Assembly: GCA_947627515.1 (NCBI GenBank)
Contig: CANQWI010000001.1
Span: forward strand, 1 to 63,826
Origin: an uncultured Clostridia bacterium
GTDB taxonomy: Bacteria; Bacillota; Clostridia; Christensenellales; Borkfalkiaceae
Direction of reading: 5' to 3'
DNA: 63,826 bases
Below the pieces are notes generated by a model that was not told where the DNA came from, made no database searches, and saw nothing but the letters and a program-made list of their open reading frames with translations. The position numbers and the translations under genes are program-made. Below are positions 1,703 through 56,337 of this stretch, one piece after another; the first letter of the stretch is position 1; every line of letters begins with the position of its first letter.

Positions 1703-1727
1703 ATGACGGCTCTGCCGTCATTTTTTA
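1703..1727 (+). terminator. rho-independent terminator after lemA
   Basis: Stem atgacggc / gccgtcat with a 3-nt loop, followed by a T6 tract. Confidence 0.7.
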
Positions 1728-1739
1728 TGTCTATTCCTT

Positions 1740-2040: not shown

Positions 2041-2041
2041 C

Positions 2042-2683: not shown

Positions 2684-3443
2684 CTGTTTTTCCCTCCGAT
2701 TTTTCCTCCGCGCGAAGCAGCTGGAAATACGCCTCGCCTACACCGTTTTTGCGCCATATGTTGCATATTTTATACCCGAGAGGGGAGAAAACCGCCTCGC
2801 ACAGCAGCTCTGCGACCATCCCCGTCAGGGCGCACGTCACGCACTGCAGCATCGTCCATCCGAAGAAGACATTCGACACGATCAGCGCGAAGATGAGATT
2901 GTCCGCAAACTGCCCGATCGCCGTCGAAACGTACGTCCTGCACGCATATGCCAAAAATCCGTCGGGCCGCTTTTTGAATATTTTTCCGACCCCCCAGTTT
3001 GTGAAGTTATTGACGACTGCCGACGCCAGAAACGCCACCGTGCTGCCGAGCAGGACATACCATGTCCCGCCGAACGTCCCGTCGAGCGCGGTATTGATCA
3101 CGGGCTCCTCGCCATAGTCGTAAAACGCGCCCCATGTGCCCGGGATAAGCGAGGAGAGGTAGAAGATGAGGCACATGCCGAGGTTGATGAGTACCGCCAG
3201 CACCGAGACCGTCGTTGCGGCCTTGGGCCCGAAGTGCTTGGTGAGAACGTCCATACATAAAAAAGACACCCACGACACGGTGATCCCGCAGTCGAGCGCA
3301 AGCCATTCGAGGGGAATGTTCAGGCTCTTGTTTGCGAGCAGGTTCATCGCGAATACGCTCAGAAGAAAGAGCGCGAGCGTGAGCGGGGGGACGTTGGAGA
3401 GGAGTGTTTTTGTCTCTTTGATGAAATTTTTCAGCGCTTGCAT
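2655..3443 (-). CDS. yhhQ: VUT family (DUF165 / YhhQ-like) queuosine-precursor transporter
   Basis: Polytopic membrane protein with the VUT-like motif TAIGQFADNLIF. Start chosen at MQALKNF (ATG 3443) with AAGGAGG 8 nt upstream, not at the longer track ORF (3545). A preQ1-I-like element lies immediately upstream. Confidence 0.8.
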   Translation of the reverse strand: MQALKNFIKETKTLLSNVPPLTLALFLLSVFAMNLLANKSLNIPLEWLALDCGITVSWVSFLCMDVLTKHFGPKAATTVSVLAVLINLGMCLIFYLSSLIPGTWGAFYDYGEEPVINTALDGTFGGTWYVLLGSTVAFLASAVVNNFTNWGVGKIFKKRPDGFLAYACRTYVSTAIGQFADNLIFALIVSNVFFGWTMLQCVTCALTGMVAELLCEAVFSPLGYKICNIWRKNGVGEAYFQLLRAEEKSEGKTDADPDHGDE

Positions 3444-3453
3444 GATCGCAAGA

Positions 3454-3492
3454 CCTCCTTGTTTTTTTCGGATGGTTTGGCAAGGAACATCC
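3454..3492 (-). promoter_or_regulatory. preQ1-I-type riboswitch candidate that sequesters the RBS
   Basis: The minus strand reads GGAUG-UUCCUUGCCAAAC-CAUCC-GAAAAAAACAAGGAGG. This is a 5-bp P1 stem, a loop, and an A-rich tail running into the SD. It has the same layout as the B. subtilis and T. tengcongensis preQ1-I aptamers and sits in front of a YhhQ-type transporter. Confidence 0.7.
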
Positions 3493-3501
3493 TGATTGCA
3501 C

Positions 3502-3530
3502 AGTATACACGATTTCGCCCCGTCTGTAAA
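3502..3530 (-). promoter_or_regulatory. sigma-70-type promoter for the riboswitch/yhhQ unit
   Basis: Minus strand: TTTACA, 17 nt, TATACT. It lies directly upstream of the aptamer. Confidence 0.55.
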
Positions 3531-3672
3531 GCGTTTTTTGCCCATTTTGCAGAAAAATCCGCGCTAACGGACACCCTTTCCATATAAGTAGACGCGAAGG
3601 GAAAACCGTTCTTTTTCGGGATTCTTATAAGAAAAGTTTTTGCATTCCTTGTAGTAAATTTTCAAAAGGATA

Positions 3673-3701
3673 TTGACAACGCTGTTTATATAATGTAGAA
3701 T
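3673..3701 (+). promoter_or_regulatory. sigma-70-type promoter for the 2150-aa surface protein gene
   Basis: TTGACA, 17 nt, TAGAAT. The -10 hexamer ends 59 nt upstream of ATG 3761. Confidence 0.5.
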
Positions 3702-3760
3702 AAGAATGATTTAATACAGTCCGTGCTCTGTGGGAAACGGGGTAGGACGAAGGAGACTAT

Positions 3761-6700
3761 ATGAAACAACAGCTCACGCTCAGGCGCACGTTGCTCTTTG
3801 TGTTGCCGCTTCTGCTCTGTGTGATGCTTGCCGCGGCCCTCGGGCTGGGCACCGCCACACGAGTCGACGCCGCTCCGACCGAGCAATCCGGCGAGCACGT
3901 ACATTCGACTCCTCCCGAAGAGTTGGAGGTCGTGTACCCCGCTACCTGCGTCGTCCCCGGCATCGGTATTTATACCTGTGAAGAATGCCAAGAAGTCGTC
4001 CCCGTCATTCTCCCCGCGGATGGGTATTCCCACGTCACGTCGAAGGATAGCGGTGGGAAATGCATTTATTGCGGCAAAACTCCTACCGCCGCCTATGCAC
4101 CCGTGACAGTGGATGGGACTCAAACCACCGAGGCCGAAGCCGACCACTACGAGGTGAAGGCTGAAGAGGCCGGCGATGAGACCCGTCTTGTCATTCCCGC
4201 GGAATACAAGGGCAAGGAGGTCCACGTCGCCGACGAGGCCTTCAAAGAGACAAACGACATGATCACCGAGCTTGTCGTCGCGGCACCTCAGATCGGCGCG
4301 AATGCCTTCACGGGGTTGACAAATCTTACCGAGGTCACCGTCGAAGAGACTGCCAAGACGATCGGCGCGGGTGCCTTTGAGAATTTGGCAAACCTCGAAG
4401 AGGTCACGCTCGGCGAAGGCCTCGAGAGCATCGGCGAGAATGCCTTTGCGGGCACCAAGTATATTGAGAACGCCGAGAACTGGGACGGCAACGCCCTTTA
4501 CAACGGCACATACCTTCTCAAGGTGAGCGAGGACGCTCCCGTCGCACCGAAGGCCCGCCGTGCCCGCGCAAGTGAGGAAGCTCTCACCGAGTTCACGGTT
4601 GCAGAGGGGACCACGGTGATCGCCGACGGCGCTTTCAAGGGTCTTAAAGATCTCACTAAGGTCACCCTTCCCGCGACAGGCCTTAAGACCATCGGAGAAA
4701 ACGCCTTCGACGGCACAGGCCTTAAGAGCATCTTCCTTCCGAAAGACATCGCAAATGTCGCAGGCTTGAATTTTAGTCTCAAAATTTACTACGACGGCCC
4801 CGCACCTGCAGAGGGCGTTTGGGAATACGAAGGCAAGCTCGGCAGCGCGACCGTCTACTTCTTCTCCGACAGCGAGCCCACGGTAGCGGGCAACTTCTGG
4901 CACCGCGACGCTGAAACTCAGGAGATCGTGGAGTGGGCCAAGCTCACAGAGCTCGAGCTCGCGGATTATCAGGAGGTCCTCTACAGGGGCAACGAATTCA
5001 CGACAGGCGAAAGCTTCAAGGTCAACGCCATTTATGACGACGGGACAAAGAGGGAGAGCGTCCTCGGCTACACGGTCGACTCCTCCGCTGTGAAAATGGA
5101 TACCGTCGGTACATATGAGGTCAAGGTCACCTATCTCTATGTAGAGGCGTCCTATACGGTCACAGTCCGCGAGGGCAATCACAAGGTCACGTTTGTCTTT
5201 GGCAACGGCACCCCCAATGATGTTCACGAAGAGATCCCCGACGGCAGCACCGTCACCCTTCCCGAGGCTCCCACTCGCGCGGGCTACACGTTCGCAGGCT
5301 GGCAGATCGGCGAGGACGGCGAAATCCGGCAAGAAGGCTCCGTCACAGTCACGAGCGACCTCACCGTCACGGCTCAGTGGACCCCGAAACAGCCCGCCAT
5401 CTCCTTCAGTTGGGCAGACGGCGAGACCCACGACGGCGTCACCGCAAATGCCGTGTTCGACGCAGAGGCTGAGACCTATACCGTCACGGTCGAAGGCGCA
5501 CCCACCAAGCTCGGCTACAAGCACACAGGCTACAAGGCCACCCTCAATGGCGGCACCGACGGCCTTACCGCGCAGGAGGACGGCAGCTTTACTTTCAAGA
5601 TCGCCGACGATATGGCCCTCGTCCTCACCCCGACGTGGGAGCAGCTCTACACCGTCAACGCTGCTGTAGCTTCCCACGCTAAGGTAACCTTCGAAGATCC
5701 TCAAGCCTATTATGCAAGCGGCGACTCCATCACCTTCACCGTAGCGGTTGATAAAGGCTACAAGCTCGTCTCCGTCAAGAACGGCGAGACCGATCTCATC
5801 GCAGGCGAAAACGGCACCTACACCGTCACGGTCGGAAACGCCAACATCCTTATCACCGTCGAGACCGCCGAGGTCACGGTCACGGTTACGTTTGTCGAGG
5901 CCGATGGCGTCACCTTCGGCAATGTCAAAGCAGAGATCACCTATGCCGACGACCGCACCACTGCCACGGTGAAATTGACAGGCGACCCCGTCAATGAGAA
6001 ACCGCACACCCGTTTCGACGGCTGGACCGTTTCGGGCTACACCTACGATCCCGAAAGCGGCCTCACGCTCGACCTCACCAACGCCGACCTCGAGCTCATC
6101 TTCTCTGCCAAATACACCCAGCTCTACACGGTGCAGACGAATATCGCTGAAGGCAACATCGTCACTGTCAGCTTTGACCCCGCCCTGCAGAAGGAGTACG
6201 AGAACGGTGCCACCGTCACCTTCACAGTCGAGCTTGTGGACGGCTATAAGCTCGTCTCCGTCAAGAGCAACGGCTCCGAACTCACCGCAGGCGACAAAGG
6301 CGTCTATACCGTCACCATCAACAACGAAAACATCACCATCACCGTCGAGACGAGACCCTTCGGCGATCCTCAGCTTCGGTCCTTCGACAAGGCAGAGCTC
6401 CGCAAGGATGGGGACGACAAGGTCTACCTCGTCCTCACCCTGACGATCGACGAGATCACCCTCGAGAACCTTCAGAAAACCACTTGGCTCGACAACAAGT
6501 TCCAGAATAACTCCAATCTGCAACGTTCCGTGGATGTGGAAAAGGTCGAGCGTCTCTCCGCAGGGAATCAGTTCGAGCTCTATTTCAACATCACCGCTTC
6601 CATTCCCGACGGCGAATGGGTCAGGGCACGTCAAATCACCATAAATGGCAAAGAGTATAGCGCGCTCCCGACAACGGTCGAATTCGGCGAGACAACGAAC

Positions 6701-9700
6701 ACCTCGACAGCCGACGGGACGACCTACACGCTGGCGAAAGAGGGAGACTCCTTTGTCTACTACCTCGTCACCAAACAGTACACCGTTACATTTAATTACG
6801 CCTATCCGAACGAGGAGGCGAAGAGCGAGAGCCTTAAGGTTACCCACTCCAAGGACCACACTCTGTCAGGCGACCTGCTGAATCCTGCCAAAGAGGGCTA
6901 CACCTTCCTTGGCTGGTTCAGAGATAACGCTGAGCCTGAGGAAAAAATCGAGGGCAACAAGATCACGAACGTCCAAGAGGATCGCTCCTACACTGCAAAG
7001 TGGCAGATCAATCAGAACAAGATCGATTTGACCCGCGGCGATGAGTATGGCGACACGGCAGGCTCTCTCACCTGGGAGCCCGTAGGCGAGACGATCGAAT
7101 CCTTCAAGGGTCTCACTCTCACGCTCACCGTCAACGAGGGCTACACCGCGACCGTCGTTGTCAACGGCGTACCCGTTGAATCATTGAAGGAAGTAGAACA
7201 AGGCACTCACACCTACACGATCGAGCGCGTCGTTTCCGACGTTAAGATCGAGCTTACCTTCACAAAGGTTGGCGCGGCGAAGGTCCGGCTTACCGTTGAA
7301 GCGGTAGCCGCAGGCACTGCCGTCAAAGAGGAGGAGCTCGGGACCGCCCTCACAGACATCAACGGACAGGGCGATGTGGAAGTTGGCACCTCCAAGACCG
7401 TCACCTTCGTTGTCAAGGACGGCTACGGCGTGGTCGAGATCAGCGGCACAGACGCAGAGCCTACGACCGAAGTCGTCGCAGGCGGCATCGAATACACCTT
7501 GAATGTTTCCGTCGGCGAAGAAGCCGTTACGATCCAAGTCAAGATCGGTAAGAGAATTAAGGTTAACGGCCCCGCAAAAGGTGTTTGGAGTTTGAATAAA
7601 AATAACTTCCAATTCGTTGAATACGATTGGGAATGGTATACCGATGGCCAAGTGACGACCCTCTATATCTACGATGTCGGCTCAATGAGCGAGGAACTCA
7701 TTCAGAGCACAGATTTCACAAACGTGAAACCTTATGCGACATATCAACTTAAAGCCTACGGCGATTTGAGTTGGGAGAAGATTGAGGGAGCAATCAACGC
7801 TGCTTTGGGCGATCCTCGACCGGAGAGCCTTACGCTTGCATTCGCATTGAAGAAAATGCCCAGCGCAGCAGAAGCAGAAGAAGGCTATATTGATACAGGT
7901 CTTTGCTTTGCGGTTAAAGTCGGGACCACGACCCGCGATACGAGAACATTTGAAATTAAGCCCGTTAAGCCGGACCCCAAGCTCACAAGCGTTTACAATT
8001 TGACGATTGTAGACACCACAATGGATTTCTACGCCAAGACGGAATACATGGATGCCACCACGATGAATGAGTCCAACACCTTCCTGAAGGTGGGGGACAG
8101 CGTCAGTATCAAGCTGAAGAGTGCTGAAAACTTTGATGGTAACACAAAGGTCCACTTCTACTTCGACCTGACGAATATCGACAAGGTCGGCAGCGGAGCC
8201 CTCTCCTTGGAGATCGCAGGCAAATCCTATCCCCTGACCGTTGACGGTACAGACGGCGATCCTTGGAACAAAGAAGTCACCGTCGGCAACTATAAGCTCA
8301 CCTTCACCGGCGACAAGGGCAGCCCCGCTTCCCTCACCATTGAGGATATCAAGTATTCCATCAAATTTAGTCAGGATGAGGACGCAACGGGATATCCGAC
8401 GGTTGAACCTGTAGCTAAGGGGAATCTCGTCAACCTTGATGAGCTTGCAACGCCCACAAAGAATGGCTTCAAGTTCTCCTATTGGTACTACCTCTCCGAA
8501 GGTGAAGAAGAAGAGACGAAGGTCAGCGGATCGATCGATCCTTCCGACCATGCCGCCAATGACAACGACGGCGACCCGTACACCCTTACCCTCTACGCCA
8601 AATTTGAAGCGGATGTGCAGGAGCAGGTCAGCGGCTCGTATACGATTACGATTGACAATGTTAAGAGTTATGGAACCAGTTATGCTAAATATGAATGGGA
8701 GATTTTGGACCAAGACAAAAAGACCGTGCTTATTGAAGGTAGTTTGTATGGTTCGGCAAGCACCCCGGTAGGTGGTGTAACCCAATTTATTCAGTTCTCT
8801 CGAGAGACAAAAAATGGTAAAAAGAGGTGGGCTTATTTCGTAAATAGTAAAGCGACGCCTGCTCCTATCACAGGAATTAGCATAACATATCAAATTTCAG
8901 GTACAAGTACGAATAAAATTCCCGAATGGAGTCTTATGACTTCCGATTCTGCTTACACAGTAAATGACAGCTCTAATCCGACTGTTTCCGGAAACTCTTC
9001 TTATGGCAAGAAAGCAATCACGGTATTTAATAATACAGCGGGTACAATCAAATGGGACAATTTTAGTGGAAGCGATAAATTCTTTGCACTATATCTCGAT
9101 GATGATATGATGACAGGTAAGAGTGCTGCGCAGGTCACGAGTATCACGATTGAGTACGGCGGTACCACGGGGGGGGGTGAGACTACTGATGCTGATCTTC
9201 AGAAGGCACAGCAGGCTCTTGATTCTCTCGTTTTAGTGGAAGCAGAAAGCGGAATCAGCGAAGAGGCATTGGTTGAGCTTATGACAGACAGCGAAGGCGT
9301 TACCTTCAATTGGACCCTTGATAATGAAGAGGAGCTTGGCGCAGTTGTAGAGTTTGAAGATGGAGGCCTCTTTGTATATCCTGATGCTCAAGAGCATGAC
9401 ATCAAGCTCAGCGTGACTGCAACTTATAACGGACAGACCACGGCTGCAAGACAGTTCACGATCCACGTTTCCGCAGTCTCCGGCGGCGAAGGCGGCGGTG
9501 ATGAACAGACCAAGACATGGCAGAAGCTGACAAATGTCTCTGATTTAGAGGATGGGATGCAGATTCTACTCACAGCTACCCTTAGTGGCACGAAATATTA
9601 CAGTGGATCATACACAGATAATAGAAATAGCAGTACGAAAAAAGGTTATTTTGCAGCAATAAAAGACGCAAATTGGAAAGAGGGCTCACAGGCCTTGCCT

Positions 9701-10213
9701 GCTAATGCTATGGCATTGACATTAAGAAAGCCAGCTGATGCAAGTGCAAAGGACTACTGGATTATTGAGTACAAATCAGGCGATACGGTACAATATTTAA
9801 GCATGAGCGGGAGTAGCAATCAAAATCTTGAACTTCTTTCTACAGCAGACTTTGAACTTCGTTCTTCGACTGACAAAGATAAGGCATATTGGAAGATTGA
9901 AGCAGACAGTATAGTTAATAAGAGCTTTAGTACCAATGGCTTAAGATTTAATATAGACCAGAAAGATCGTTTTTCCAACTATAAAACCAGCTATGGTACA
10001 ACCGCTACAATGGAAATCTATATTTTGAAATCTACCGCTTCCGATGTCGGAACGGAAGGACCTTCGATGGTGGCGTACACGGCGAGCATGAACGGCGGCG
10101 AGCAGGCCACCGAGCAAGGGGCATGGCTGTATGCTGTGCTTGGCGGCACTGCGATGCTTGCGTTGAGCGCGGTCGCAGTCGTCCTTCTTCTCCGTTCCCG
10201 CAAGCACGACTAA
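3761..10213 (+). CDS. giant cell-surface protein: signal peptide, BspA-type LRRs, bacterial Ig-like and Listeria-Bacteroides (InlB B) repeats, C-terminal TM anchor
   Basis: Signal peptide LLLCVMLAAALGLGTATRVDA. LRR segments (IGANAFTGLTNLTEVTV.., IGENAFAGT..). Several GYTFAGW / GYTFLGW Flg_new-type repeats. C-terminal LYAVLGGTAMLALSAVAVVLLLRSRKHD. A terminator follows. Confidence 0.85.
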   Translation: MKQQLTLRRTLLFVLPLLLCVMLAAALGLGTATRVDAAPTEQSGEHVHSTPPEELEVVYPATCVVPGIGIYTCEECQEVVPVILPADGYSHVTSKDSGGKCIYCGKTPTAAYAPVTVDGTQTTEAEADHYEVKAEEAGDETRLVIPAEYKGKEVHVADEAFKETNDMITELVVAAPQIGANAFTGLTNLTEVTVEETAKTIGAGAFENLANLEEVTLGEGLESIGENAFAGTKYIENAENWDGNALYNGTYLLKVSEDAPVAPKARRARASEEALTEFTVAEGTTVIADGAFKGLKDLTKVTLPATGLKTIGENAFDGTGLKSIFLPKDIANVAGLNFSLKIYYDGPAPAEGVWEYEGKLGSATVYFFSDSEPTVAGNFWHRDAETQEIVEWAKLTELELADYQEVLYRGNEFTTGESFKVNAIYDDGTKRESVLGYTVDSSAVKMDTVGTYEVKVTYLYVEASYTVTVREGNHKVTFVFGNGTPNDVHEEIPDGSTVTLPEAPTRAGYTFAGWQIGEDGEIRQEGSVTVTSDLTVTAQWTPKQPAISFSWADGETHDGVTANAVFDAEAETYTVTVEGAPTKLGYKHTGYKATLNGGTDGLTAQEDGSFTFKIADDMALVLTPTWEQLYTVNAAVASHAKVTFEDPQAYYASGDSITFTVAVDKGYKLVSVKNGETDLIAGENGTYTVTVGNANILITVETAEVTVTVTFVEADGVTFGNVKAEITYADDRTTATVKLTGDPVNEKPHTRFDGWTVSGYTYDPESGLTLDLTNADLELIFSAKYTQLYTVQTNIAEGNIVTVSFDPALQKEYENGATVTFTVELVDGYKLVSVKSNGSELTAGDKGVYTVTINNENITITVETRPFGDPQLRSFDKAELRKDGDDKVYLVLTLTIDEITLENLQKTTWLDNKFQNNSNLQRSVDVEKVERLSAGNQFELYFNITASIPDGEWVRARQITINGKEYSALPTTVEFGETTNTSTADGTTYTLAKEGDSFVYYLVTKQYTVTFNYAYPNEEAKSESLKVTHSKDHTLSGDLLNPAKEGYTFLGWFRDNAEPEEKIEGNKITNVQEDRSYTAKWQINQNKIDLTRGDEYGDTAGSLTWEPVGETIESFKGLTLTLTVNEGYTATVVVNGVPVESLKEVEQGTHTYTIERVVSDVKIELTFTKVGAAKVRLTVEAVAAGTAVKEEELGTALTDINGQGDVEVGTSKTVTFVVKDGYGVVEISGTDAEPTTEVVAGGIEYTLNVSVGEEAVTIQVKIGKRIKVNGPAKGVWSLNKNNFQFVEYDWEWYTDGQVTTLYIYDVGSMSEELIQSTDFTNVKPYATYQLKAYGDLSWEKIEGAINAALGDPRPESLTLAFALKKMPSAAEAEEGYIDTGLCFAVKVGTTTRDTRTFEIKPVKPDPKLTSVYNLTIVDTTMDFYAKTEYMDATTMNESNTFLKVGDSVSIKLKSAENFDGNTKVHFYFDLTNIDKVGSGALSLEIAGKSYPLTVDGTDGDPWNKEVTVGNYKLTFTGDKGSPASLTIEDIKYSIKFSQDEDATGYPTVEPVAKGNLVNLDELATPTKNGFKFSYWYYLSEGEEEETKVSGSIDPSDHAANDNDGDPYTLTLYAKFEADVQEQVSGSYTITIDNVKSYGTSYAKYEWEILDQDKKTVLIEGSLYGSASTPVGGVTQFIQFSRETKNGKKRWAYFVNSKATPAPITGISITYQISGTSTNKIPEWSLMTSDSAYTVNDSSNPTVSGNSSYGKKAITVFNNTAGTIKWDNFSGSDKFFALYLDDDMMTGKSAAQVTSITIEYGGTTGGGETTDADLQKAQQALDSLVLVEAESGISEEALVELMTDSEGVTFNWTLDNEEELGAVVEFEDGGLFVYPDAQEHDIKLSVTATYNGQTTAARQFTIHVSAVSGGEGGGDEQTKTWQKLTNVSDLEDGMQILLTATLSGTKYYSGSYTDNRNSSTKKGYFAAIKDANWKEGSQALPANAMALTLRKPADASAKDYWIIEYKSGDTVQYLSMSGSSNQNLELLSTADFELRSSTDKDKAYWKIEADSIVNKSFSTNGLRFNIDQKDRFSNYKTSYGTTATMEIYILKSTASDVGTEGPSMVAYTASMNGGEQATEQGAWLYAVLGGTAMLALSAVAVVLLLRSRKHD

Positions 10214-48525: not shown

Positions 48526-48578
48526 CAAGCTCCCATTGAAAGCAAGCCTACGAAGGGTACGCATTCGAAATGTCTCCC

Positions 48579-48604
48579 GCCCGTCCACCGACGGGCATTT
48601 TTTG
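48579..48604 (+). terminator. rho-independent terminator
   Basis: gcccgt-ccaccg-acgggc followed by attttttg. Confidence 0.75.
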
Positions 48605-48747
48605 TACAAAAACCCCGCCGTCTCCTCAACGATTTTCTTATCATGAGAAAAGTCAACCTTGTGCCCGAAAAGCCCTTCTCTTGGGTAAAAAATAGGACAC
48701 GATCCTCCCTCGCAGCCCGCTTCTCTCTGAATGTCCCTCTGTCCTTC

Positions 48748-48776
48748 TTGCTTTTTCCCGCCTCGTGTGATATAAT
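48748..48776 (+). promoter_or_regulatory. sigma-70-type promoter of the DUF2779 gene
   Basis: TTGCTT, 17 nt, TATAAT. About 115-nt leader to ATG 48893. Confidence 0.5.
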
Positions 48777-48892
48777 TCAGAAAAACTGCGTATTGCGGAG
48801 CGAGGGTATTCGCTATTCGAGGGCGCATGTCCTGCAAAAGCATTTCCCCCTCGGCTCCGACGCGGAGGGCGTACAACACAGGAGAAGATACG

Positions 48893-50407
48893 ATGTTTTA
48901 TTTCAGCAAGTCGAAATACTGTGATTTCAGGCAGTGTCCAAAAATTCCGTGGCTGAAAAAGTACAAGCCCGAGGAGTATGTCGTCGATGAGGCAACGCAG
49001 GCGCGGTTTACCACTGGCAACGAGGTGGGGGACCTTGCCATGGGGCTCTTCGGAGAGTTTGTCGAGGTCACCTCCTACAAGGAGGACGGCAGCCTTGATT
49101 TGAACAGGATGAAGGAGCTCACGCGGCAATATATCGCCGAGGGGCGAGACAACGTCTGCGAGGCGTCCTTCGATTATCAAGGGCTGTACTGCGCCGTGGA
49201 TATTTTGAGGAAAAACGGCAACGGCTACGACATCTACGAGGTCAAGAGCAGTGCCTCGCCCGAGAACCCCGTGTATATCATCGATACCTCTTATCAGAAG
49301 TATGTTCTGGAAAGGTGCGGCGTGACGGTCAACAGGGTCTTTCTCGTCACCGTCGACACGAGCTATGTCTTTGACGGCGTCCTCGATCTTCAAAAATATT
49401 TCAGGGTCACCGAGGTCACCCCGCTTGTCGACGAGGAAATGAAGGGGGTGGAGGAGCACCTCAGGGCGGCCGAGAAGGTCATGGCCTCCTATAAGGAGCC
49501 CGCCGTCGACCTCTCCTGCTCCTGCGATAAGCCCTACCCGTGCGCCTTCTTCGGCTATTGCACAAGGGATCTGCCCGCGCCCTCGGTGTTCGGACTCTAT
49601 GGCCTGTCCTTCAAAAAGGCTCTCGCGCTCTACGAGGAGGGCGTCGTCTCCTTTGAGGACGTTCTCGGGGACGGACGCGCACTTGATACGGGAAAGCAGC
49701 AGGGGAATCTGCGCCGCCGTCAGGTGGAGTATGCGCTTGAGGAGCTTGGGACCTATGTCGATAAAGCGGGCATCGCAGCCTTTCTCTCTACCCTTACCTT
49801 TCCGCTGTATTTTTTCGATTTCGAAACGGTCCAGCTCGCCGTTCCGCGCTATGTCGGCACAAAGCCTTACCAGCAGATCCCCGTACAGTATTCTTTACAT
49901 ATCTTAAGAAATGAGGGCGGGACCTTAGAGCACAGGGAATTTCTTGGCCGTCCAGAGGAGGACCCGAGAAGGGCACTTGCCGAGCGGCTTATCGCCGACA
50001 TTCCCGACGACGTCTGCGTGCTAGCCTATAACAAGAGCTTTGAGTGCACGCGCATCAGGGAGCTTGCAAACGTCTTCCCCGACCTGAGCGAGCACCTCCT
50101 CAAAATACAGGAAAATATCAAGGACCTTTTGGACCCCTTCCAAAAAGGCTACTACTACAACCGCGACATGGGTGGGTCATTTTCCATCAAGAGCGTGCTT
50201 ACCGCCCTCTATCCCGACGAACCCGAACTCAACTATCACAGCCTCGAGGGGGTGCACAACGGCAGCGAGGCGATGGCCCTCTTCCCGCGGCTCAAGGACC
50301 TTCCCGCGGACGAGAGGAAAAAGGCCGAGGAGGATCTTTTGAAGTACTGCGCCCTCGACACCTACGCCCTTTTCAAGGTTTACGAAAAGCTCCGCTCCGT
50401 TCTTTGA
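48893..50407 (+). CDS. DUF2779-type protein: Cas4-like PD-(D/E)xK nuclease N-domain plus RNase H-fold exonuclease-like C-domain
   Basis: Start at MFYFSKSKYCDFRQCPK (AGGAGAAG RBS). DIYEVKSS and a Cys cluster CSCDKPYPCAFFGYC (Cas4/AddB-like). C-domain FFDFET, AYNKSFE, YCALDT. Confidence 0.7.
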   Translation: MFYFSKSKYCDFRQCPKIPWLKKYKPEEYVVDEATQARFTTGNEVGDLAMGLFGEFVEVTSYKEDGSLDLNRMKELTRQYIAEGRDNVCEASFDYQGLYCAVDILRKNGNGYDIYEVKSSASPENPVYIIDTSYQKYVLERCGVTVNRVFLVTVDTSYVFDGVLDLQKYFRVTEVTPLVDEEMKGVEEHLRAAEKVMASYKEPAVDLSCSCDKPYPCAFFGYCTRDLPAPSVFGLYGLSFKKALALYEEGVVSFEDVLGDGRALDTGKQQGNLRRRQVEYALEELGTYVDKAGIAAFLSTLTFPLYFFDFETVQLAVPRYVGTKPYQQIPVQYSLHILRNEGGTLEHREFLGRPEEDPRRALAERLIADIPDDVCVLAYNKSFECTRIRELANVFPDLSEHLLKIQENIKDLLDPFQKGYYYNRDMGGSFSIKSVLTALYPDEPELNYHSLEGVHNGSEAMALFPRLKDLPADERKKAEEDLLKYCALDTYALFKVYEKLRSVL

Positions 50408-50487
50408 TTCAATCATATTATTTATCAAATTAAATTATTTGATGAAAATTCTAAATCCAAAAATCAGAGTGGGGGAGCCTTTCTTCT

Positions 50488-50530
50488 CCAAAGAGAGCCC
50501 GTGCGGCATTGCCGCACGGGCTCTCTTTGG
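50488..50530. terminator. perfect 20-bp hairpin between convergent genes (bidirectional terminator candidate)
   Basis: ccaaagagagcccgtgcggc-att-gccgcacgggctctctttgg. Confidence 0.65.
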
Positions 50531-50648
50531 AGGTATCTATTATGATCAATAAAATAAATCATCGGTATCCTTAACAGCTCTTAAAACCACCTCCCCGATG
50601 GAGAAATTTTTTGCATGACAGACATTCAGCTCCGCTCCCTTACCGCGC

Positions 50649-51584
50649 TCACAGGATCAGAATGTGTCGGAGAAAGCATTTCGCGCACCCGCTGCAGTCG
50701 CCGCAGTCGGGATCGTATTTAAGGTCGTAGCGGAGGATGTACTCATCCGGCAGGAGCTGGCGTGCGATCGGGCAATTTTTGGCGATGAGCTCTGCAAGCG
50801 CGGGCTCGAGGTCCCTCGGTCGGATCAGGCCTGCAAGGAAGTGATACTCATACGCCAATTCGTTTTGCCGTTTGACGGGAAATACGCGGAGAATGGGCGC
50901 CGACTTTTTGCGATAGTCGAGGAAAAAGGAGAGAAAGCCCTCACGGATGTCCTCTTCGCCGAGGTTCCCTTCGACGAGGAAGCTGTTGCATTTCAAAAAG
51001 AGGGCTGCATAGGCGTCGTCGTGGCTGTCGGCGCATGCGTCGATCACCTCGAGGCACTTGAAGGCCGTCACGACAAACAGGGAATCGTCTGTCGTCAGTC
51101 TGTATTTTTCGCGGACGTGTTCATCCGCTTTTTTGTCGCGGGAAAGGCGGTCGTACCAGTATTCAAAGAGGGGGTCGGCGAGGTTGAAGCCCTTCCCGAT
51201 CGCCTTTGAGACGAGCCCTTCGTTGTAATTTTTATCGGTAAACCTGACGGTCTCACACATCCTCGTGCCGCCGAGGAGGGTAAGGACCTCGACATCGTCC
51301 GTAAAGCTGCCGAGCACCTCGGGATAGTCCCTTGGGATCCCGTTCAAAAAGAGCTCGCTGTTCTCCGTGCGGAGGATGGATGAGGCCCGATATTCATGCG
51401 TCCTTGAGGCTCTCCTCTTTTCCTCGAGTATCGCGTTGTTGTAGGCAGAGATGTATTCCTCGTTGCTTTTGATAAAGGCAATGGCGACGTCGCGGTCCCT
51501 CTGCAGTGCTTCGGGAAGAAAGCGGTAAACGGCGGGGGTCTTTTTGACAAGGCAGATCGCCTCCTCTTTCTTGATGCTTTTCAT
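50649..51584 (-). CDS. hypothetical protein (DUF4116-like N-terminal motif, Cys-rich C-terminus)
   Basis: AAGGAGAGG RBS. LPEALQRDRDVAIAFIKSN resembles DUF4116 repeats. C-terminus DPDCGDCSGCAKC. Lies 10 nt downstream of the preceding gene, so probably in the same operon. Confidence 0.55.
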   Translation of the reverse strand: MKSIKKEEAICLVKKTPAVYRFLPEALQRDRDVAIAFIKSNEEYISAYNNAILEEKRRASRTHEYRASSILRTENSELFLNGIPRDYPEVLGSFTDDVEVLTLLGGTRMCETVRFTDKNYNEGLVSKAIGKGFNLADPLFEYWYDRLSRDKKADEHVREKYRLTTDDSLFVVTAFKCLEVIDACADSHDDAYAALFLKCNSFLVEGNLGEEDIREGFLSFFLDYRKKSAPILRVFPVKRQNELAYEYHFLAGLIRPRDLEPALAELIAKNCPIARQLLPDEYILRYDLKYDPDCGDCSGCAKCFLRHILIL

Positions 51585-51594
51585 ATGCCTCTCC

Positions 51595-52338
51595 TTATTT
51601 GCCGTATTTGATGCGAAGGCCGATGCTCATGCCGCAGTCGAGCATCTTCCATGATTTGGGAGCCTCATCGGTGATTTCAAGTGCGACGCGGAGCCCGTAC
51701 TTTTCGAGCATTTCAAGTTCAAATCCGCTTAACCACCAGCATTGAACGAGGAACAGGTCTCCCTCGGCTCCGTCGATCACGACGATTTCCTGCCCGTCCG
51801 TTAGGATCTTTCCGTTCTCGATATGCCAAACGATTTCGTTGGCGTTATTGCCAAGAAGTTTCGTGAAGTGCTCGTAAAACGGGTAGAGATTATACAGCTT
51901 GAAGTATAAGGCCGCATCGTTCGCCTCGGAGAAGACGCGGAGCTTTTCGATGAATTCTGCCGTGTCGCTGTTCGGCTCGATATCCGCAACGATCATGCCG
52001 TCCTCAGGCATCTCGTCGAGATCCTCGCTGTCCATGTCGAGCTCTTGCGACCAATAGCTCACCTCGCCGAACAAGTTCTGTTTTTGAAACTCCCGCATAA
52101 TATCCGCAAGCGTCTTTTTATCGGTGACGATCTGCCAGTAGGGAAGCGGGCTGTCGTCCTCGAACCTGCGCCAGAAGTCCTCGAAGGACGTTTTCCCGCC
52201 GATAAATTCCTCATCGATGGCGGGGGTGACCTCTTCGACGAACTCTGCAAGCTCCTCATACGTCTCCACCTCAAAGGAAAGGCCGAGCTTTTCCGCGATG
52301 CGATTTCCGAGTTCTTTTGCGCTTGTGATGTTTTTCAT
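51595..52338 (-). CDS. hypothetical acidic protein
   Basis: Start at MKNITSAKEL (AAAGGAG RBS), inside the longer track ORF. No recognisable motif. Confidence 0.55.
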   Translation of the reverse strand: MKNITSAKELGNRIAEKLGLSFEVETYEELAEFVEEVTPAIDEEFIGGKTSFEDFWRRFEDDSPLPYWQIVTDKKTLADIMREFQKQNLFGEVSYWSQELDMDSEDLDEMPEDGMIVADIEPNSDTAEFIEKLRVFSEANDAALYFKLYNLYPFYEHFTKLLGNNANEIVWHIENGKILTDGQEIVVIDGAEGDLFLVQCWWLSGFELEMLEKYGLRVALEITDEAPKSWKMLDCGMSIGLRIKYGK

Positions 52339-52381
52339 GATCAAAATCTCCTTTCGTTGTTTTGTGCCTCTATCATAGCAC

Positions 52382-52415
52382 AAAAAAAGCACCCGAGGCT
52401 GTCAAAAAGGGGTGC
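52382..52415 (-). terminator. terminator after the WYL regulator gene
   Basis: Minus strand: GCACCC, 15-nt loop, GGGTGC, then T7. Confidence 0.45.
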
Positions 52416-52439
52416 GTAAAAAAATTCTGAAAAAATTTT

Positions 52440-53108
52440 TTATTCGGGTTCGATATCGATGATATCGCGGAGGGGAATATCGTATTTCGTGACGTCGTTG
52501 AGGTCGAAGGATACGAGAATGCCGCCTCGTGTAAAATTGATCTGACGCGGGCAGATAACGCACCTTTCCGAGAATTTGTATCCTCCTTCGCGGGAGAGGA
52601 TCAATTTACAGGAGACCTTCCCCGCTCTTTTCTTTGCCTCGAGAAGCACGGCAAGATAGTGGATCTGTTTTGATACGGGGTTATGGTGTTCTTCCACAAT
52701 AGAGGTATGCATTTTGACGTACCCCTTTGCCTTTTTATGGGCACGCATGCAAAGAAGCTTATTCGATAGTACCTCCGCTTCCTCTGCGCCGAGGTCGGGA
52801 CTGCTCTTTATCATGCAGGCGAGAAAGAGGAGCTCTTCCCTCGTAAGACGGTCCTCGTCGAGGTAGTACCGCGTCGTCTTTCCCTTGGTGCGCTTGATGG
52901 GAAAGCCCGCAGCCTCGATCTCGTCTATTTTAACGTAGAAGGTCTTCTCTTGGAGATCTTTTTCATCGTCGTCTCTGTATTTTTCGGCGTGTAGCTCGAT
53001 GAGCTCCCGTTTGCTTAAAAGATGATTTTTGTCCGTATTCTCCTCAAGGACCTTCAGAAGTTCCAAGGCGATCTCCTTGGATCTTCCGCGTTTTTTCTGT
53101 TCTTCCAT
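52440..53108 (-). CDS. putative transcriptional regulator, winged-HTH plus WYL-like domain
   Basis: N-terminal wHTH-like segment (IALELLKVLEENTDKNHLLSKRELIEL). The C-terminal segment ERCVICPRQINFTRGGILVSFDLNDVTKYDIPLRDIIDIE fits the WYL-domain pattern (R.V.P..L......WYL......R.F.L.RI). Assigned from memory of the motif only. Confidence 0.55.
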   Translation of the reverse strand: MEEQKKRGRSKEIALELLKVLEENTDKNHLLSKRELIELHAEKYRDDDEKDLQEKTFYVKIDEIEAAGFPIKRTKGKTTRYYLDEDRLTREELLFLACMIKSSPDLGAEEAEVLSNKLLCMRAHKKAKGYVKMHTSIVEEHHNPVSKQIHYLAVLLEAKKRAGKVSCKLILSREGGYKFSERCVICPRQINFTRGGILVSFDLNDVTKYDIPLRDIIDIEPE

Positions 53109-53139
53109 TGCGCTGCCTCATGCGTGATGTTTGTACAGT

Positions 53140-53168
53140 ATCATAGCACATATGCGCGTAAATGGCAA
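53140..53168 (-). promoter_or_regulatory. promoter of the WYL regulator gene
   Basis: Minus strand: TTGCCA, 17 nt, TATGAT with TGC immediately upstream (extended -10). Confidence 0.5.
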
Positions 53169-53189
53169 GAGTTTTTTTGAAAAAGGGGG

Positions 53190-53218
53190 TTGAATTTCTT
53201 CCGCATTCGTGATATGAT
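53190..53218 (+). promoter_or_regulatory. candidate divergent promoter for 53311-56069
   Basis: TTGAAT, 17 nt, TATGAT. An alternative extended -10 (TGCTACGAT) lies at 53273-53281. Confidence 0.4.
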
Positions 53219-53310
53219 TTGAACAAATAATTTTCTTGCACACCCCTTTTTGACACACTGCAAGCGCAGGAGATGTGCTACGATGAAAAAAACGATAAGG
53301 AGAAAAAATT

Positions 53311-55245
53311 ATGGCAGACTTGATGCAGCTCGCAGAAAAAGCATGCAGAAATAAGAAGCTCGACATCCCCGAGCTCAAGACGGCAGAGGGTGCCGTCGCA
53401 CTCTCCGCGTGCATGGACAGCATGACAGGACGCGAGGGGGAGGGCTGTGGCTATGAGAGGGCGGGCTATGCCGCCGTGGAGCTCATAAAATGGACGGATA
53501 CCCTTCCGCTCGAGGTGTTTCGGAGGGACAGCGTCGGAATTCCCGTGATCCTCGAGCGCATCCGTAAAATTTACAACGGCGGCTTCTTTTTGGAGGGGCA
53601 TCAGTTCCCGCTCACGTATGCCGATTACTATGGGTGCGCCTCGCACTCGTTTGTAAGGCTTATCAGTGAGCGGTCGGACGCATGGGGGCTTCCCTATGAC
53701 TACAAAAAGCTCAGGGCGTTGAAGGATAACGGCTATTCGTTCGATTGGTATTCGTACCCCTCAAACGCCATCGAAACGCATCCGGATGCTTCATGGTGCG
53801 AGCATCTTCGTCTTTTTCCGCAAAAATCGGAATCTTTGGTCTATGATGCGATCCATACAAAGCGACGGGATATCCTCGAATGTATGAAAGAGCTGAACGC
53901 TCTTTCGGACGCGAAAGTTTTGGAGATCATGAGCTCGTCGTCGGAGGAGACACGCGAATTCTTCCGCTCGGTATGGTACGAAGAGAGGGAGGAGGCACCC
54001 GAAATATCCATGGTCGAAAATCTTCTTTCGGAAGCCGATAAGCTCGCCGTCAAAACGGAGGCATTTCTGCGGCTCACCCGCGAGGAACGGTTAAAAAGTC
54101 GCTTCGATTACAGGGGCAGCAATGAAAAGCTATGCAAATTAAGGGGAAATATTTACAAGATCGTTAGCGGGTCCCCTGATGCGTTTTGCGGGAAACGGGA
54201 GCTCATGAAGCGTGCGCTCGTCCATGCGCCGTACATTCTTCTGTCGGGAGAATGGAGGAACAATAAGGAGTTCTATGAGATCGCCTTCGATCGGGCAGAG
54301 CAGGGCTACATTTTGAAAGAGGACGGGAATTGGTGCTCGACCTATCTTGCCGAAAGCAGCAAAAAGGAGGATAAGGAGGCCAGGCTGAATGCCTTCAAGC
54401 TCCTTTATCCGTCGGACGACGAAAAGCGGGCGTTCCTGAAGGCGCATCCCACCTGTGCGATTTTAGGCGGATTCCATGGCACCTGCTCCAAAAAGGTCAG
54501 AGAGGATTTTGCATTTTGGACAGATATCTATGCCCACACCGTCTATCTGGATGTTCGCGGCATTCTTCCCTCTGCGCTGAAAAAGAGCCAGGCGTTCCTT
54601 AAAATGTGCGAGCCCGTCAAGCATATCGCGGATTTTGAGAAATTCTTCATCTATGAAACGGCAGACGATCTGGAGCTTGTATTGGCTCAGAAAAGGACGG
54701 AGATCGATATGTCTAAGATCCCCGACTCGTTGAGGACCCGCGAAAACATCTACCGCATTTTGGAGCATGAATCGTACAACACGTTCCGCTTGAAGGATTG
54801 TATCGAAAAGCTCGACGTCACTCTCTTTTCGGATGAAGAATTTGTTGTCGGGGCGGCGGCTTATGAGATCGATGCGAAGGAATTTTTCCTTCGCATCGAT
54901 AAGCCCCTGCGCAAGACCGAGCGCGTATGGAGGGCATGGGCGACGAGGGAGCGCATCGCGAGCATCTCGAGTGACCTTCCCATGGTCGTCAAGGGTTCAA
55001 GGAGCTTTGCCGAGCATCTCCTCGCGATTGGAGCGGGCGTGAGCTTCGAAGGCCCCGTGTTCGCGGAGCTGGTGAAGAAGTACCCCGACCTTTCCGATGC
55101 CCTCGTGGACGCATACGTCAAGGAATTGAGCTGCGGAGACGAAATATACGGCCGTCAGCTGCAGCAGTGGGAGCAAAAACGCCACGTCGACGAAATTCCC
55201 GATGAACAGCTTCGCGAGCTCGTCTCTCAAAAATTATTCGGTTGA
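53311..55245 (+). CDS. hypothetical protein (644 aa)
   Basis: AAGGAG RBS. Helical-repeat-like composition with DUF4116-like stretches. No catalytic motif recognised. Confidence 0.55.
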   Translation: MADLMQLAEKACRNKKLDIPELKTAEGAVALSACMDSMTGREGEGCGYERAGYAAVELIKWTDTLPLEVFRRDSVGIPVILERIRKIYNGGFFLEGHQFPLTYADYYGCASHSFVRLISERSDAWGLPYDYKKLRALKDNGYSFDWYSYPSNAIETHPDASWCEHLRLFPQKSESLVYDAIHTKRRDILECMKELNALSDAKVLEIMSSSSEETREFFRSVWYEEREEAPEISMVENLLSEADKLAVKTEAFLRLTREERLKSRFDYRGSNEKLCKLRGNIYKIVSGSPDAFCGKRELMKRALVHAPYILLSGEWRNNKEFYEIAFDRAEQGYILKEDGNWCSTYLAESSKKEDKEARLNAFKLLYPSDDEKRAFLKAHPTCAILGGFHGTCSKKVREDFAFWTDIYAHTVYLDVRGILPSALKKSQAFLKMCEPVKHIADFEKFFIYETADDLELVLAQKRTEIDMSKIPDSLRTRENIYRILEHESYNTFRLKDCIEKLDVTLFSDEEFVVGAAAYEIDAKEFFLRIDKPLRKTERVWRAWATRERIASISSDLPMVVKGSRSFAEHLLAIGAGVSFEGPVFAELVKKYPDLSDALVDAYVKELSCGDEIYGRQLQQWEQKRHVDEIPDEQLRELVSQKLFG

Positions 55246-55316
55246 CGAAAATCCGTCGCGCTGCAGCTCATATCTGACGGCTCGCAGGCATTTTCGGCGC
55301 AACAGGAGAGGGGAAT

Positions 55317-56069
55317 ATGCAAAAAAACACACGGGAAACGCAGACCGCCGTTTCAGAGTATTGTAAAAGGCTGCGGGACAAGCTCGGGCTTCAGCTCGCA
55401 GAGTACGATTTTGACCCTTGGAAAAATATTCAGATCTATGACGGTGCAAAATTTTTCTGCAACGATACGGAGACCGCGTACGCATTGTATGGGTTCAATG
55501 ACGAGCTTTCCCCCGAATGCGCAAGACGGCTCGGCGCTTGCCGTTTAAAGCGCGTCTGGAACGAATATCTCGCGGGCGTTTGGTTCAACTGCTACGCCAA
55601 TGAACGGGATATCCTGAGGCACATGCACGGGGAGAGGAGCGCGCCGCCCGAGATTTATGCCAATTGCTTCAAGCTCATCCCCATCAAGCGGGAAATTTTC
55701 CGCACCATGGATATCAATGAGGACGGCATGCTCGAGCTCGAGCTCACGCCGTATGCGAGCGGCCGCTTTGAGCCCGATGAGGAGGAGCTCCCGCGGAGAG
55801 AGGGGTGCCTCGCGATTTTTCCCCTGCGCCTCCGTCTGAGCGGCGAAATGCCCGTAGACCCCGTGAAATTCTCCGTCAGCGAGGCCAAATACAGCCGCCT
55901 CGTGGAGCTCGATTGCGGAAAGGAGTCCTATCGCTTCTACACGGGGGTCAGCTATCAGAAGCCGCTCGTCGAGATAAAAAAATATCGCGCCCGCACCGAT
56001 GCGGAGGGCGCATACCTTGACATCCTTCTGAAAATGACCTTTCAGAAAAATTACGGCGATTGGGAGTGA
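55317..56069 (+). CDS. hypothetical protein (250 aa)
   Basis: GGAGAGGGG RBS. No recognisable motif. A terminator follows. Confidence 0.55.
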   Translation: MQKNTRETQTAVSEYCKRLRDKLGLQLAEYDFDPWKNIQIYDGAKFFCNDTETAYALYGFNDELSPECARRLGACRLKRVWNEYLAGVWFNCYANERDILRHMHGERSAPPEIYANCFKLIPIKREIFRTMDINEDGMLELELTPYASGRFEPDEEELPRREGCLAIFPLRLRLSGEMPVDPVKFSVSEAKYSRLVELDCGKESYRFYTGVSYQKPLVEIKKYRARTDAEGAYLDILLKMTFQKNYGDWE

Positions 56070-56154
56070 GCGGAGGACCGCAGGAGAGCTTTACGGAGGG
56101 CCCGGGCACCGCGACGGCTCGCAGTCAAGCGATGTTATGAATATCAATGCAAAG

Positions 56155-56181
56155 GCGTATACGAGGGTATACGCTTTTTTT
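56155..56181 (+). terminator. rho-independent terminator
   Basis: gcgtatac-gagg-gtatacgc followed by T7. Confidence 0.75.
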
Positions 56182-56266
56182 GTCCAAAATTTGACACAGG
56201 TGGAGAAAAGTCGGGGAGAAAATAAAATTTTTTCTGAAAATCAGGCAAAAAAGTTTTTCAATATTG

Positions 56267-56295
56267 TTGACAATGGGGGGGGGGCGTGGTATAAT
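56267..56295 (+). promoter_or_regulatory. consensus sigma-70 promoter of the giant adhesin gene
   Basis: TTGACA, 17 nt, TATAAT with TGG immediately upstream (extended -10). An AAGGAG RBS lies 7 nt before ATG 56338. Confidence 0.7.
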
Positions 56296-56337
56296 AGCGA
56301 CGGTAAAAAAGAGTATTTTAACAGAAGGAGTTTGGAT

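Follow-up and report, generated by a model that had tools for sequence, protein, structure and literature searches.

We examined a 63,826-nucleotide (nt) segment of the chromosome of an uncultured Clostridia bacterium (hereafter the window), and within it the feature at positions 48526-56337. An initial annotation, made from the sequence alone, had described this feature as a lower-GC (guanine plus cytosine) island with genes for a DUF2779 nuclease, a WYL-type regulator and four orphan proteins. The list of open reading frames (ORFs) bore out the order and strands of these six genes, designated g1 to g6 (Table 1), and a terminator scan recovered the terminator expected 3' of the GDSL lipase (lipoprotein) gene, as a hairpin at 48579-48596 followed by a T-run. 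On the basis of orthologue alignments, two start codons were corrected to the conserved positions, namely 48893 for g1 (MFYFSKSKYC) and 52338 for g3 (MKNITSAK). The WYL candidate, g4, looks monocistronic, as had been stated, and g3-g2 and g5-g6 are two separate two-gene units. The real unit comprises five genes, g2-g6 (50649-56069), and not six; it is referred to below as the cassette. The other genes of the window include guaB, guaA, a GT2 glycosyltransferase gene, genes for sugar-binding proteins and glycoside hydrolases, and three genes for giant surface proteins.

The two operons of the cassette share a cis-element, which is new relative to the initial annotation. A repeat search had listed a 27-nt 'inverted repeat' (I2) at 52400-52426 and 53229-53255, which proved to be one and the same sequence placed in the same orientation upstream of g3 and of g5; CACCCCTTTTTGACA is a segment of the 27-bp box. 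The pattern GCRCACCCCTTTTTGACA occurred twice in the window, compared with 0.07 expected by chance, and CCCCTTTTTGACA was found exactly twice, at equivalent positions, in each of the related loci L003, L006 and L007-L010. In L007, the second copy precedes a gene for a leucine-rich repeat (LRR) protein, LRR_5(907), the first gene of the divergent operon. L015, L019 and L020, which have no divergent operon, contain a single box, before g3. In the window, and in every relative with the two operons, each operon is preceded by the box.

Alignment of 13 upstream regions disclosed two conserved blocks, TTTTTCTTGCRCACCCCTTTTTGACA and, 22-23 nt downstream, the extended -10 element TGTGGTATGAT; the remaining spacer diverges. 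The consensus box TTTTTCTTGCRCACCCCTTTTTGACA is asymmetric, covers about 21-27 bp and has the same orientation at both promoters. Its TTGACA was rejected as a -35 element because of the 22-23 nt spacing to the -10 element, and a sigma-54 type of promoter was rejected because no TGGCAC is found upstream of TTGC (literature consensus). The box-linked promoters resemble the extended -10 type, the factor site lying at around -35 to -55. We also rejected the box as an RNA element: there was no Rfam match, and the g5 leader folded no better than shuffled sequences (z -0.6), so that a DNA element is favoured. That the conserved box before g3-g2 and g5-g6 defines a two-promoter regulon is, at the level of sequence, well supported, and it is likely that a single factor, probably g4, co-regulates both operons through this box.

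The surroundings of the box are also conserved. GCACCC in copy 1 forms the left arm of a terminator-like hairpin after the g4 stop codon (GGGTGC and T7); this hairpin is kept in the high-GC group of relatives, with a change from A-U to U-G in L002. A counterpart of the g4 promoter is conserved in L002, L006 and L007. The canonical promoter P1, directed towards g5, is conserved as GGGGTTGAA(T/G)-N17-(T/A)TGATATAAT in L002, L005, L006 and L007, and as a variant in L003. Copy 2 of the box starts about 10 nt past the -10 element of P1, which places it at roughly +5 to +30 of this promoter.

Table 1. Genes and regulatory features of the cassette and its borders (window coordinates)
Feature	Position	Strand	Size, basis or remark
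g1, DUF2779 protein, Cas4-like PD-(D/E)xK plus 3'-5' exonuclease-like	48893..50407	+	504 amino acids (aa); PF11074
Perfect palindrome, bidirectional terminator between convergent g1 and g2	50486..50532	.	Inverted repeat I3, terminator scan
g2, cytosolic helical protein	50649..51584	-	311 aa; DUF4116-like repeat, CxxCxxC
g3, acidic alpha/beta protein, partner of g2	51595..52338	-	247 aa; orthologues, fusions
Extended -10 element TGTGCTATGAT, g3-g2 promoter	52372..52382	-	Conserved in 13 aligned upstream regions
Box copy 1 AATTTTTTTACGCACCCCTTTTTGACA, 22 nt upstream of g3 -10	52400..52426	-	Repeat search, pattern counts
g4, winged helix-turn-helix (wHTH)-linker-WYL-like regulator without WCX	52440..53108	-	222 aa; hhalign, PADLOC
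g4 promoter, canonical sigma-A type, TTGCCA-17-TATGAT plus TG motif	53140..53168	-	Promoter scan, 10/12 matches
Promoter P1, TTGAAT-17-TATGAT plus TG motif, towards g5	53190..53218	+	Promoter scan; conserved
Box copy 2 AATTTTCTTGCACACCCCTTTTTGACA, 23 nt upstream of g5 -10	53229..53255	+	Repeat search, pattern counts
Extended -10 element TGTGCTACGAT, box-linked g5-g6 promoter	53274..53284	+	Aligned upstream regions
g5, cytosolic all-alpha solenoid	53311..55245	+	644 aa; AlphaFold2 (AF2) model, Foldseek
g6, cytosolic domain protein	55317..56069	+	250 aa; relatives with LRR_5 fusions
g5-g6 intrinsic terminator GCGTATAC-GAGG-GTATACGC plus T7	56155..56181	+	Sequence reading, hairpin scan

The identity of the regulator was assessed by profile comparisons. 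By hhalign, the N-terminal winged HTH of g4 is homologous to that of WYL regulators. A profile of the g4 family (20 members) aligned with P0027, a protein with WYL and WCX by Pfam (hhalign 96.5%, E 8.7e-10), over 191 columns that included the WYL region; residues 158-221 of g4 were placed opposite the Pfam-defined WYL region of P0027 (142-216), with low confidence in that part. The comparison with the canonical 325-aa WYL protein encoded in L015 gave 97.6% (E 3e-12) over residues 10-169, which correspond to the HTH and linker. The sole match of g4 to a hidden Markov model (HMM) was with the PADLOC WYL profile (E 5e-4) and concerned residues 53-160, i.e. the HTH-linker part. This supports the assignment of g4 as a divergent, minimal wHTH-WYL-like factor lacking WCX; we do not assign it to the BrxR or CapW families proper.

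Relatives of the cassette were found to be very rare. The g4 family has about 20 members, g6 has 8 representative clusters among 1.84e9, homologues of g5 make up 5 other clusters among 5.8e9, and overall each of the four cargo families (g2, g3, g5 and g6) amounts to 6-20 clusters among billions. A scan of the JGI metagenome collection, with the profiles of g2 and g4 as queries, yielded no relative, and exact-sequence look-ups for g5 and g1 did not reveal a second copy of the window region. The named carrier genomes are metagenome-assembled genomes (MAGs) from rabbit gut ('Lapin'), of uncultured Clostridia and, in one case, labelled Candidatus Gastranaerophilales; the remaining carriers are ENA and Logan assemblies. 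The family being so far confined to rabbit-gut metagenomes, its general impact is uncertain.

Comparison of these loci indicated which parts of the cassette are constant. The arrangement of the window, with g4-g3-g2 on one strand and g5-g6 divergent, recurs in L002, L003, L006, L017 and L018. The divergent operon is g5-LRR_5-g6 in L004 and LRR_5(907)-g5-LRR_5(475)-g6 in L007-L010. A distant, collinear version in L011-13 reads g4-g3-g2-86 aa-LRR_5(570)-LRR_5(770)-LRR_5::g6, with 37, 34, 29 and 28% identity to the window for g4, g2, g3 and g6, respectively. In the low-GC version (L019, L020), g4 is followed by a g3-g2 fusion and then by two LRR_5 genes; L015 also has a low-GC version of the cassette. 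L001 has g5 alone (53% identity), without g4 or box. Orthologues of g3 were found in every related locus whose contig runs far enough past g4. Thus, the constant core consists of g4, the box, g3 and g2, and the variable cargo of g5, g6 and BspA-type LRR_5 proteins devoid of a signal peptide, the window representing an LRR-less variant. Identities across the relatives were 41-73% for g5, 47-70% for g6 and 59-86% for g4; evolution of the cargo is fast, and its content varies.

Two further observations were made on these loci. In L018 (2051-2653), g4 is identical to that of the window and the g2 call has only 200 aa though the contig continues, so that g2 may be frameshifted or truncated in this sister strain. 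Small DUF4357-like ORFs or fragments occur in or beside the cassette in two lineages, at 12406-12666 of L011 (a weak match, E 0.0077) and at 2443-2535 of L007 (a precomputed Pfam match, for a 30-aa product).

The DUF2779 protein encoded by g1 was correctly identified. PF11074 matched it with an E-value of 4e-48 (163.3 bits, for a gathering cut-off of 23.3), its N-terminal half is Cas4-like (PADLOC Cas4, 2.3e-8, residues 27-247) and its C-terminal half RNase_H_2-like. It is a clear member of the DUF2779 family of solo Cas4-exonuclease fusions, with a Cas4-like half and a 3'-5' exonuclease-like half (PMC13621843, PMC3985635). The initial annotation had counted it within the same module, which we could not maintain: DUF2779 is absent from the contexts of L002, L011-13, L015, L019 and L020, in L003 its gene and g2 lie on different strands, and four other genes separate it from the cassette in L007. 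It was rejected as a component in view of this variable linkage, of the lack of a box and of the palindromic terminator that parts g1 from g2. We regard it as a frequent, dispensable neighbour that lies outside the regulon. Members of this family are widespread, and the one found in the minimal cell JCVI-syn3.0 is quasi-essential (PMC13621843); here DUF2779 is only a variable neighbour of the cassette. The palindrome itself (23 bp, 1-nt loop, 100% complementary) is unusually long for a terminator and is present as a single copy in the window.

The cargo proteins look non-enzymatic and cytosolic. In agreement with the initial annotation, no catalytic motif was evident in g2, g3, g5 and g6. None of g1-g6 has a hydrophobic segment, the maximum KD19 being 1.52 as compared with 2.6-2.8 for the lipoprotein and a giant protein. 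The N-terminal part of g2 contains a DUF4116-like repeat (E 2.6e-4, 20.9 bits), below the cut-off of 24.9 for Pfam PF13475. Its C-terminal end carries an invariant C297-x2-C300-x2-C303 motif; a fourth Cys is found at varying positions, and a Cys-Pro (C271-P) is conserved in nearly all members. This Cys cluster is a probable metal site. A protein search with a concatenated g3+g2+g6 query returned only two natural g3-g2 fusions, P0028 and P0029. A fusion is also encoded in L020 (575 aa), and the natural fusions measure 572 and 575 aa. Such fusions are classic evidence of joint function and would make g3 and g2 partners. No family or PDB match was found for g3, and Foldseek of the fusion model gave PII-like domains as the best matches, with E 2.4 or worse, which are not significant and were not used.

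The AF2 model of g5 (pLDDT 81.3) is an all-alpha solenoid. No specific fold relative was identified with Foldseek, the best PDB match having E 0.011 with TM <=0.2 and the best match in BFVD (viral) E 0.055. Weak DUF4116 matches were detected in 2/6 members of the g5 family (best E 0.015). Thus, g2 and, weakly, g5 show repeats like those of DUF4116 repeat proteins, although the matches are under the Pfam threshold. The residues of g6 that are invariant across 13 relatives are structural only, and the g6 domain forms the C-terminus of the LRR_5 proteins P0035, P0037 and that of L011 (404 aa). PDB profile searches with g2, g3, g4, g5 and g6 found matches only to the LRR part of the fused g6 relatives. 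Paralogy of g3 with g6 and of g2 with g5 was rejected by hhalign. Because of the g3-g2 pair, the g2 Cys cluster, the g5 solenoid and the links of g6 with LRR_5, we interpret the cargo as a group of binding or sensor-scaffold proteins rather than of enzymes.

The cassette was also compared with BspA-type LRR_5 proteins. Relatives of the cassette encode 1-3 LRR_5 proteins and the g6 domain is fused to LRR_5, but typical BspA proteins are located at the surface, whereas the cassette-linked ones lack a signal peptide, and the version in the window has no LRR_5 gene. A small beta-rich domain, e.g. VLVKFDDNTKAYFNSEIPLAVGNAVIAGGKTGVV, recurs in cassette-linked LRR_5 proteins (L007 3655-5082 and 7045-9768; L011 12726-14438); it is N-terminal in the protein of 475 aa and C-terminal in those of 907 and 570 aa. 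A weak match to PADLOC PDC-S70 (E 0.0016) was obtained here. The LRR_5 proteins of the low-GC cassettes (L020 2819-8173; L019 4256-6334) all share a conserved ...VWGYKGE tail and also have no signal peptide.

Some of the related loci lie in suggestive neighbourhoods. In L015, genes for PglX, PglZ and BrxL (PADLOC E 1e-133 to 1e-282) are followed by a double AAA+ gene, a canonical WYL gene and then g4. This stretch (352-9864), from the MAG labelled Candidatus Gastranaerophilales, is a type-1 BREX segment (PglX C-terminus, PglZ, BrxL) with an IetA-like double AAA+ ATPase and a 325-aa WYL-WCX regulator, so that two WYL-type genes stand in tandem. Positions 1-129 of L020 overlap the same junction and encode the C-terminal 42 residues of a WYL protein that is almost the same (38/42 identical); a Schlafen AlbA_2/HATPase_c_4 gene comes after the cassette. 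In L012, a T5orf172 gene matching the defence candidate PDC-S57 (5.6e-99) is found downstream, separated from the cassette by two HTH genes. The genes that separate the cassette from DUF2779 in L007 include ASCH, metallophosphatase and PD-(D/E)xK-like ones; PADLOC matches there were weak only, and the nuclease-like motif is a reading of the sequence by eye. In L001 (8935-13251), g5 stands between two toxin-antitoxin modules, a RelE-like/HTH pair and a PIN/MazE pair, and a Tag-type adenine glycosylase gene is also present. In all, suggestive neighbours were present in 2-3 of about 7 contexts (L015, L020, L012) and in none of the window, L002 and L003.

Taken as a whole, g2-g6 are best explained as a regulator-controlled accessory conflict or stress cassette, a reading to which we assign a probability of about 0.5. 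The earlier proposal of an accessory or defence module holds insofar as there is a regulator-headed cassette of orphan genes with relatives in defence-island settings; it does not hold for DUF2779, which is outside, nor for the presence of a known system, as none was detected in the window with PADLOC-DB 2.0. A conflict or defence role taken by itself is plausible, though in our estimation somewhat short of an even chance, and draws on association and on knowledge of WYL regulators. BrxR works through two R-boxes in a defence island, and for 48% of its homologues known defence systems are located no more than 50 kb downstream (PMC9122601).

The mechanism that we propose is as follows. The short wHTH-WYL-like factor g4, made from its own constitutive-looking promoter, would bind the box at both promoters. 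Its WYL-like domain would sense a nucleic-acid-type signal, such as single-stranded DNA resulting from damage or infection, by analogy with BrxR, CapW, PafBC and DriD; WYL factors are known to sense single-stranded DNA (PMC11662680, PMC11804915). In response, g4 would switch g3-g2 and g5-g6 together. It could act as a repressor, by a roadblock, which fits because the box lies directly downstream of the conserved P1. It could also be an activator of the PafBC kind, which fits because the box-linked promoters, like those of PafBC (PMC8635444), have no -35 element. The cargo would most likely serve in genetic conflict or stress, either in defence against phages or mobile elements or as a branch of the damage response.

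Several characterised WYL systems offer points of comparison. As with the wHTH-WYL-WCX repressors of the BrxR type (PMC9122601), a small HTH-WYL-type regulator heads a set of accessory genes, two related boxes are found, one near the regulator's own gene and one before the promoter of the cargo, and one relative of the cassette is physically beside a BREX system. However, g4 has no WCX and no detectable similarity to BrxR or to solved WYL proteins, the box is asymmetric rather than an inverted repeat, and the cargo does not consist of BREX genes. With CapW, the single-stranded DNA-sensing WYL repressor of CBASS (PMC11662680), the cassette may share its logic, in which sensing of a cue by WYL releases the neighbouring operon, but it contains neither CBASS components nor a recognisable effector enzyme nor WCX. 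The target promoters of the activators PafBC and DriD (PMC8635444, PMC9186387) have, similarly, a good -10 element, no canonically spaced -35 element and a factor-specific upstream element, and one factor acts on more than one promoter, as proposed for g4. The box of the cassette is located further upstream (about -35 to -55) than the -26 element of PafBC; in addition, g4 is a single short protein, and its regulon is apparently confined to the adjacent genes, only two boxes being present in the window.

A number of results weigh against a regulator-controlled conflict cassette, and they concern in the first place the regulator. That g4 is WYL-like stands as far as its profile-profile relation to wHTH-WYL factors is concerned, but the Pfam WYL model (PF13280) did not match it at E up to 0.1, which is formally an outcome that the initial annotation had named as refuting its proposal. 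WCX is missing, since g4 and its 19 relatives end at about residue 200-224, straight after the WYL-like segment, and PDB profile searches found no sequence match of g4 to solved WYL proteins. Dyad symmetry, a feature of the BrxR and CapW operators, is not obvious in the box. As to the cargo, g2, g3, g5 and g6 are indeed orphans, with no above-threshold match in Pfam, NCBIfam, PHROGs or PADLOC, and no significant match was obtained in PADLOC-DB 2.0 for these four proteins, for the g3-g2 fusion or for the associated LRR_5 proteins. No nuclease, NTPase, protease, TIR, Sir2 or membrane effector that could account for a killing or restriction activity is encoded in the cassette, and the AlphaFold2 model of the g3-g2 fusion was unreliable (pLDDT 55.6). 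Finally, strong defence neighbours occur in only 2 of about 7 independent contexts, a raw count that does not prove an enrichment, and the feature is flanked in the window by glycoside hydrolases, lipase, guaBA and giant surface proteins, with no recognised defence gene nearby.

An orphan cargo with no predicted chemistry is unusual among WYL-linked modules and hard to interpret. One may picture the cassette family as an unrecognised immune or conflict system, in which the minimal WYL regulator would induce cytosolic sensors made of repeat proteins (BspA-type LRR_5 proteins, the g5 solenoid and g6 as an adaptor domain) and the g3-g2 metal-binding pair would be the output. We consider this rather improbable; if true, there would be LRR-based intracellular recognition in bacteria with no known NTPase or nuclease effector. 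As for the regulator-controlled conflict or stress cassette, its present value is that the unit has been redrawn to five genes, with exact coordinates for promoters and box and with its constant and variable parts told apart. Should the regulatory model be true, g4 would be a compact and tractable WCX-less WYL-type factor acting on two promoters via an asymmetric box and an extended -10 element, and would bear on how WYL factors activate or repress transcription. Should the cargo be defensive, the system would consist of repeat and scaffold proteins only, in which recognition would probably fall to the cytosolic LRR proteins; such a design is uncatalogued in bacteria.

The base composition of the feature had been taken as a sign of an island, and this could be upheld only in part. 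The GC content is indeed lower in the feature (0.522) than at 10.6-48.5 kb (0.588), but the dip has no boundary at 56337: the first 1.5 kb of the giant gene that follows have a GC content of 0.456, and the 3' end of a giant ORF, at 8.2-10.2 kb, one of 0.465, both of them below any part of the 'island'. The edges assigned to the island therefore do not match the limits of the compositional dip. The AT-rich spacers were confirmed, with GC contents of 0.41 (50408-50648), 0.37 (52339-52439) and 0.40 (53109-53310). At third codon positions, the GC content was 0.61-0.74 for g1-g6 and 0.69-0.85 (mostly 0.73-0.85) for the other sizeable ORFs of the window, the giant surface genes being excluded. Part of the shift is at codon position 2 (0.30-0.38 as compared with 0.38-0.47), because the proteins are rich in Glu, Lys and Leu and poor in Gly, Thr and Val. 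Orthologous loci were 4-6 GC points under their flanks in hosts with a GC content of 0.37 to 0.60. The deficit therefore looks like a property of the cassette and is no proof of a recent transfer into the genome of the window.

This recurrence of the same GC deficit in every host, which makes it look intrinsic, also speaks for the main rival explanation, namely a lineage-specific physiological regulon with no defence role, which would be a damage or stress branch (PafBC-, DriD- or SiwR-like) or a cytosolic scaffold inherited mostly vertically in a few gut anaerobes. Known WYL factors do also govern DNA-damage regulons and colonisation traits (PMC8635444, PMC9186387, PMC10693628, PMC11880434), and neither mobility genes nor known defence components were found. 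The cassette proteins of the window and L007 are 65-83% identical, much as the neighbouring DUF2779 protein (73%), and L011 has kept a rhamnosidase gene (43% identity) upstream, 1 kb from g4. The window also has its rhamnosidase gene upstream, but GDSL and DUF2779 genes intervene and the cassette is entered from the g2 end. On the other hand, the flanking genes differ in nearly every locus, and g5 or LRR genes have been gained, lost or fused, making the cargo highly variable. The hosts range in GC content from 0.37 to 0.59 and include the Gastranaerophilales-labelled MAG, and g4 is no less similar between these hosts than within the high-GC group (60-62% identity to the window in low-GC hosts, 59% in high-GC L003), which suggests spread between lineages. 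Together with the BREX, Schlafen and PDC-S57 neighbours, this leads us to consider a purely physiological regulon unlikely, though less so than any other rival.

Spread over hosts of very different GC content, variable neighbourhoods, a lower GC content and AT-rich spacers would also be consistent with an origin in a mobile element or prophage, as its remnant or its cargo, i.e. LRR or solenoid proteins for host interaction or anti-defence that became stranded in the chromosome. In L019, moreover, a fragment of a microvirus-like replication initiator gene adjoins g4. No hallmark of a mobile island was present, however. The window contained no recombinase-sized ORF with an integrase match and no recombinase domain (ORF list, Pfam), a repeat search found no flanking direct repeats beyond chance-level short matches, both as the initial annotation had it, and no tRNA gene was found. 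None of the contigs recovered shared the flanks of the window and lacked the cassette. There were no matches in PHROGs, no relatives in IMG/VR with the g4 and g5 profiles, and no tblastn match of the g3-g2 fusion or g5 among 50,697 phage records and 72,556 plasmids. The unit also has its own regulator and terminators. An origin of this kind seems to us improbable. The ORF in L019 (221-901, minus strand; 226 aa) resembles microvirus replication initiators (tblastn 6e-11 to bajarodino virus 39; Pfam REP_ORF2-G2P, 3.5e-4) and may be the remnant of an integrated microvirus.

We finally considered that the cassette might encode immunity or accessory proteins for adjacent giant surface or polymorphic proteins, as in polymorphic toxin loci. 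Folds of the immunity type commonly include repeat proteins such as LRRs and solenoids. In the window, the giant MBG-domain gene starts 270 nt after g6, in L001 g5 is between two giant surface genes, and in L011 a giant gene lies upstream. Giant genes are, however, abundant (three in the 64-kb window), which makes adjacency weak evidence, and none occurs in the available sequence around the cassette in L002, L007, L015, L019 and L020. The cassette is equipped with promoters and terminators of its own and the giant gene with a separate, perfect promoter, and no toxin domain was identified. This explanation is the least probable of those considered, with very little chance of being right.

The promoter of the giant MBG-domain gene (start at 56338), TTGACA-17-TATAAT at 56267-56295, contains a run of ten G residues (56275-56284) in its spacer. 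Slippage in this run could alter the length of the spacer, which makes it a candidate phase-variable promoter. A run of nine G residues (9169-9177) was also observed inside another giant surface ORF (3746-10210), where it is a possible site of frameshift-type phase variation.

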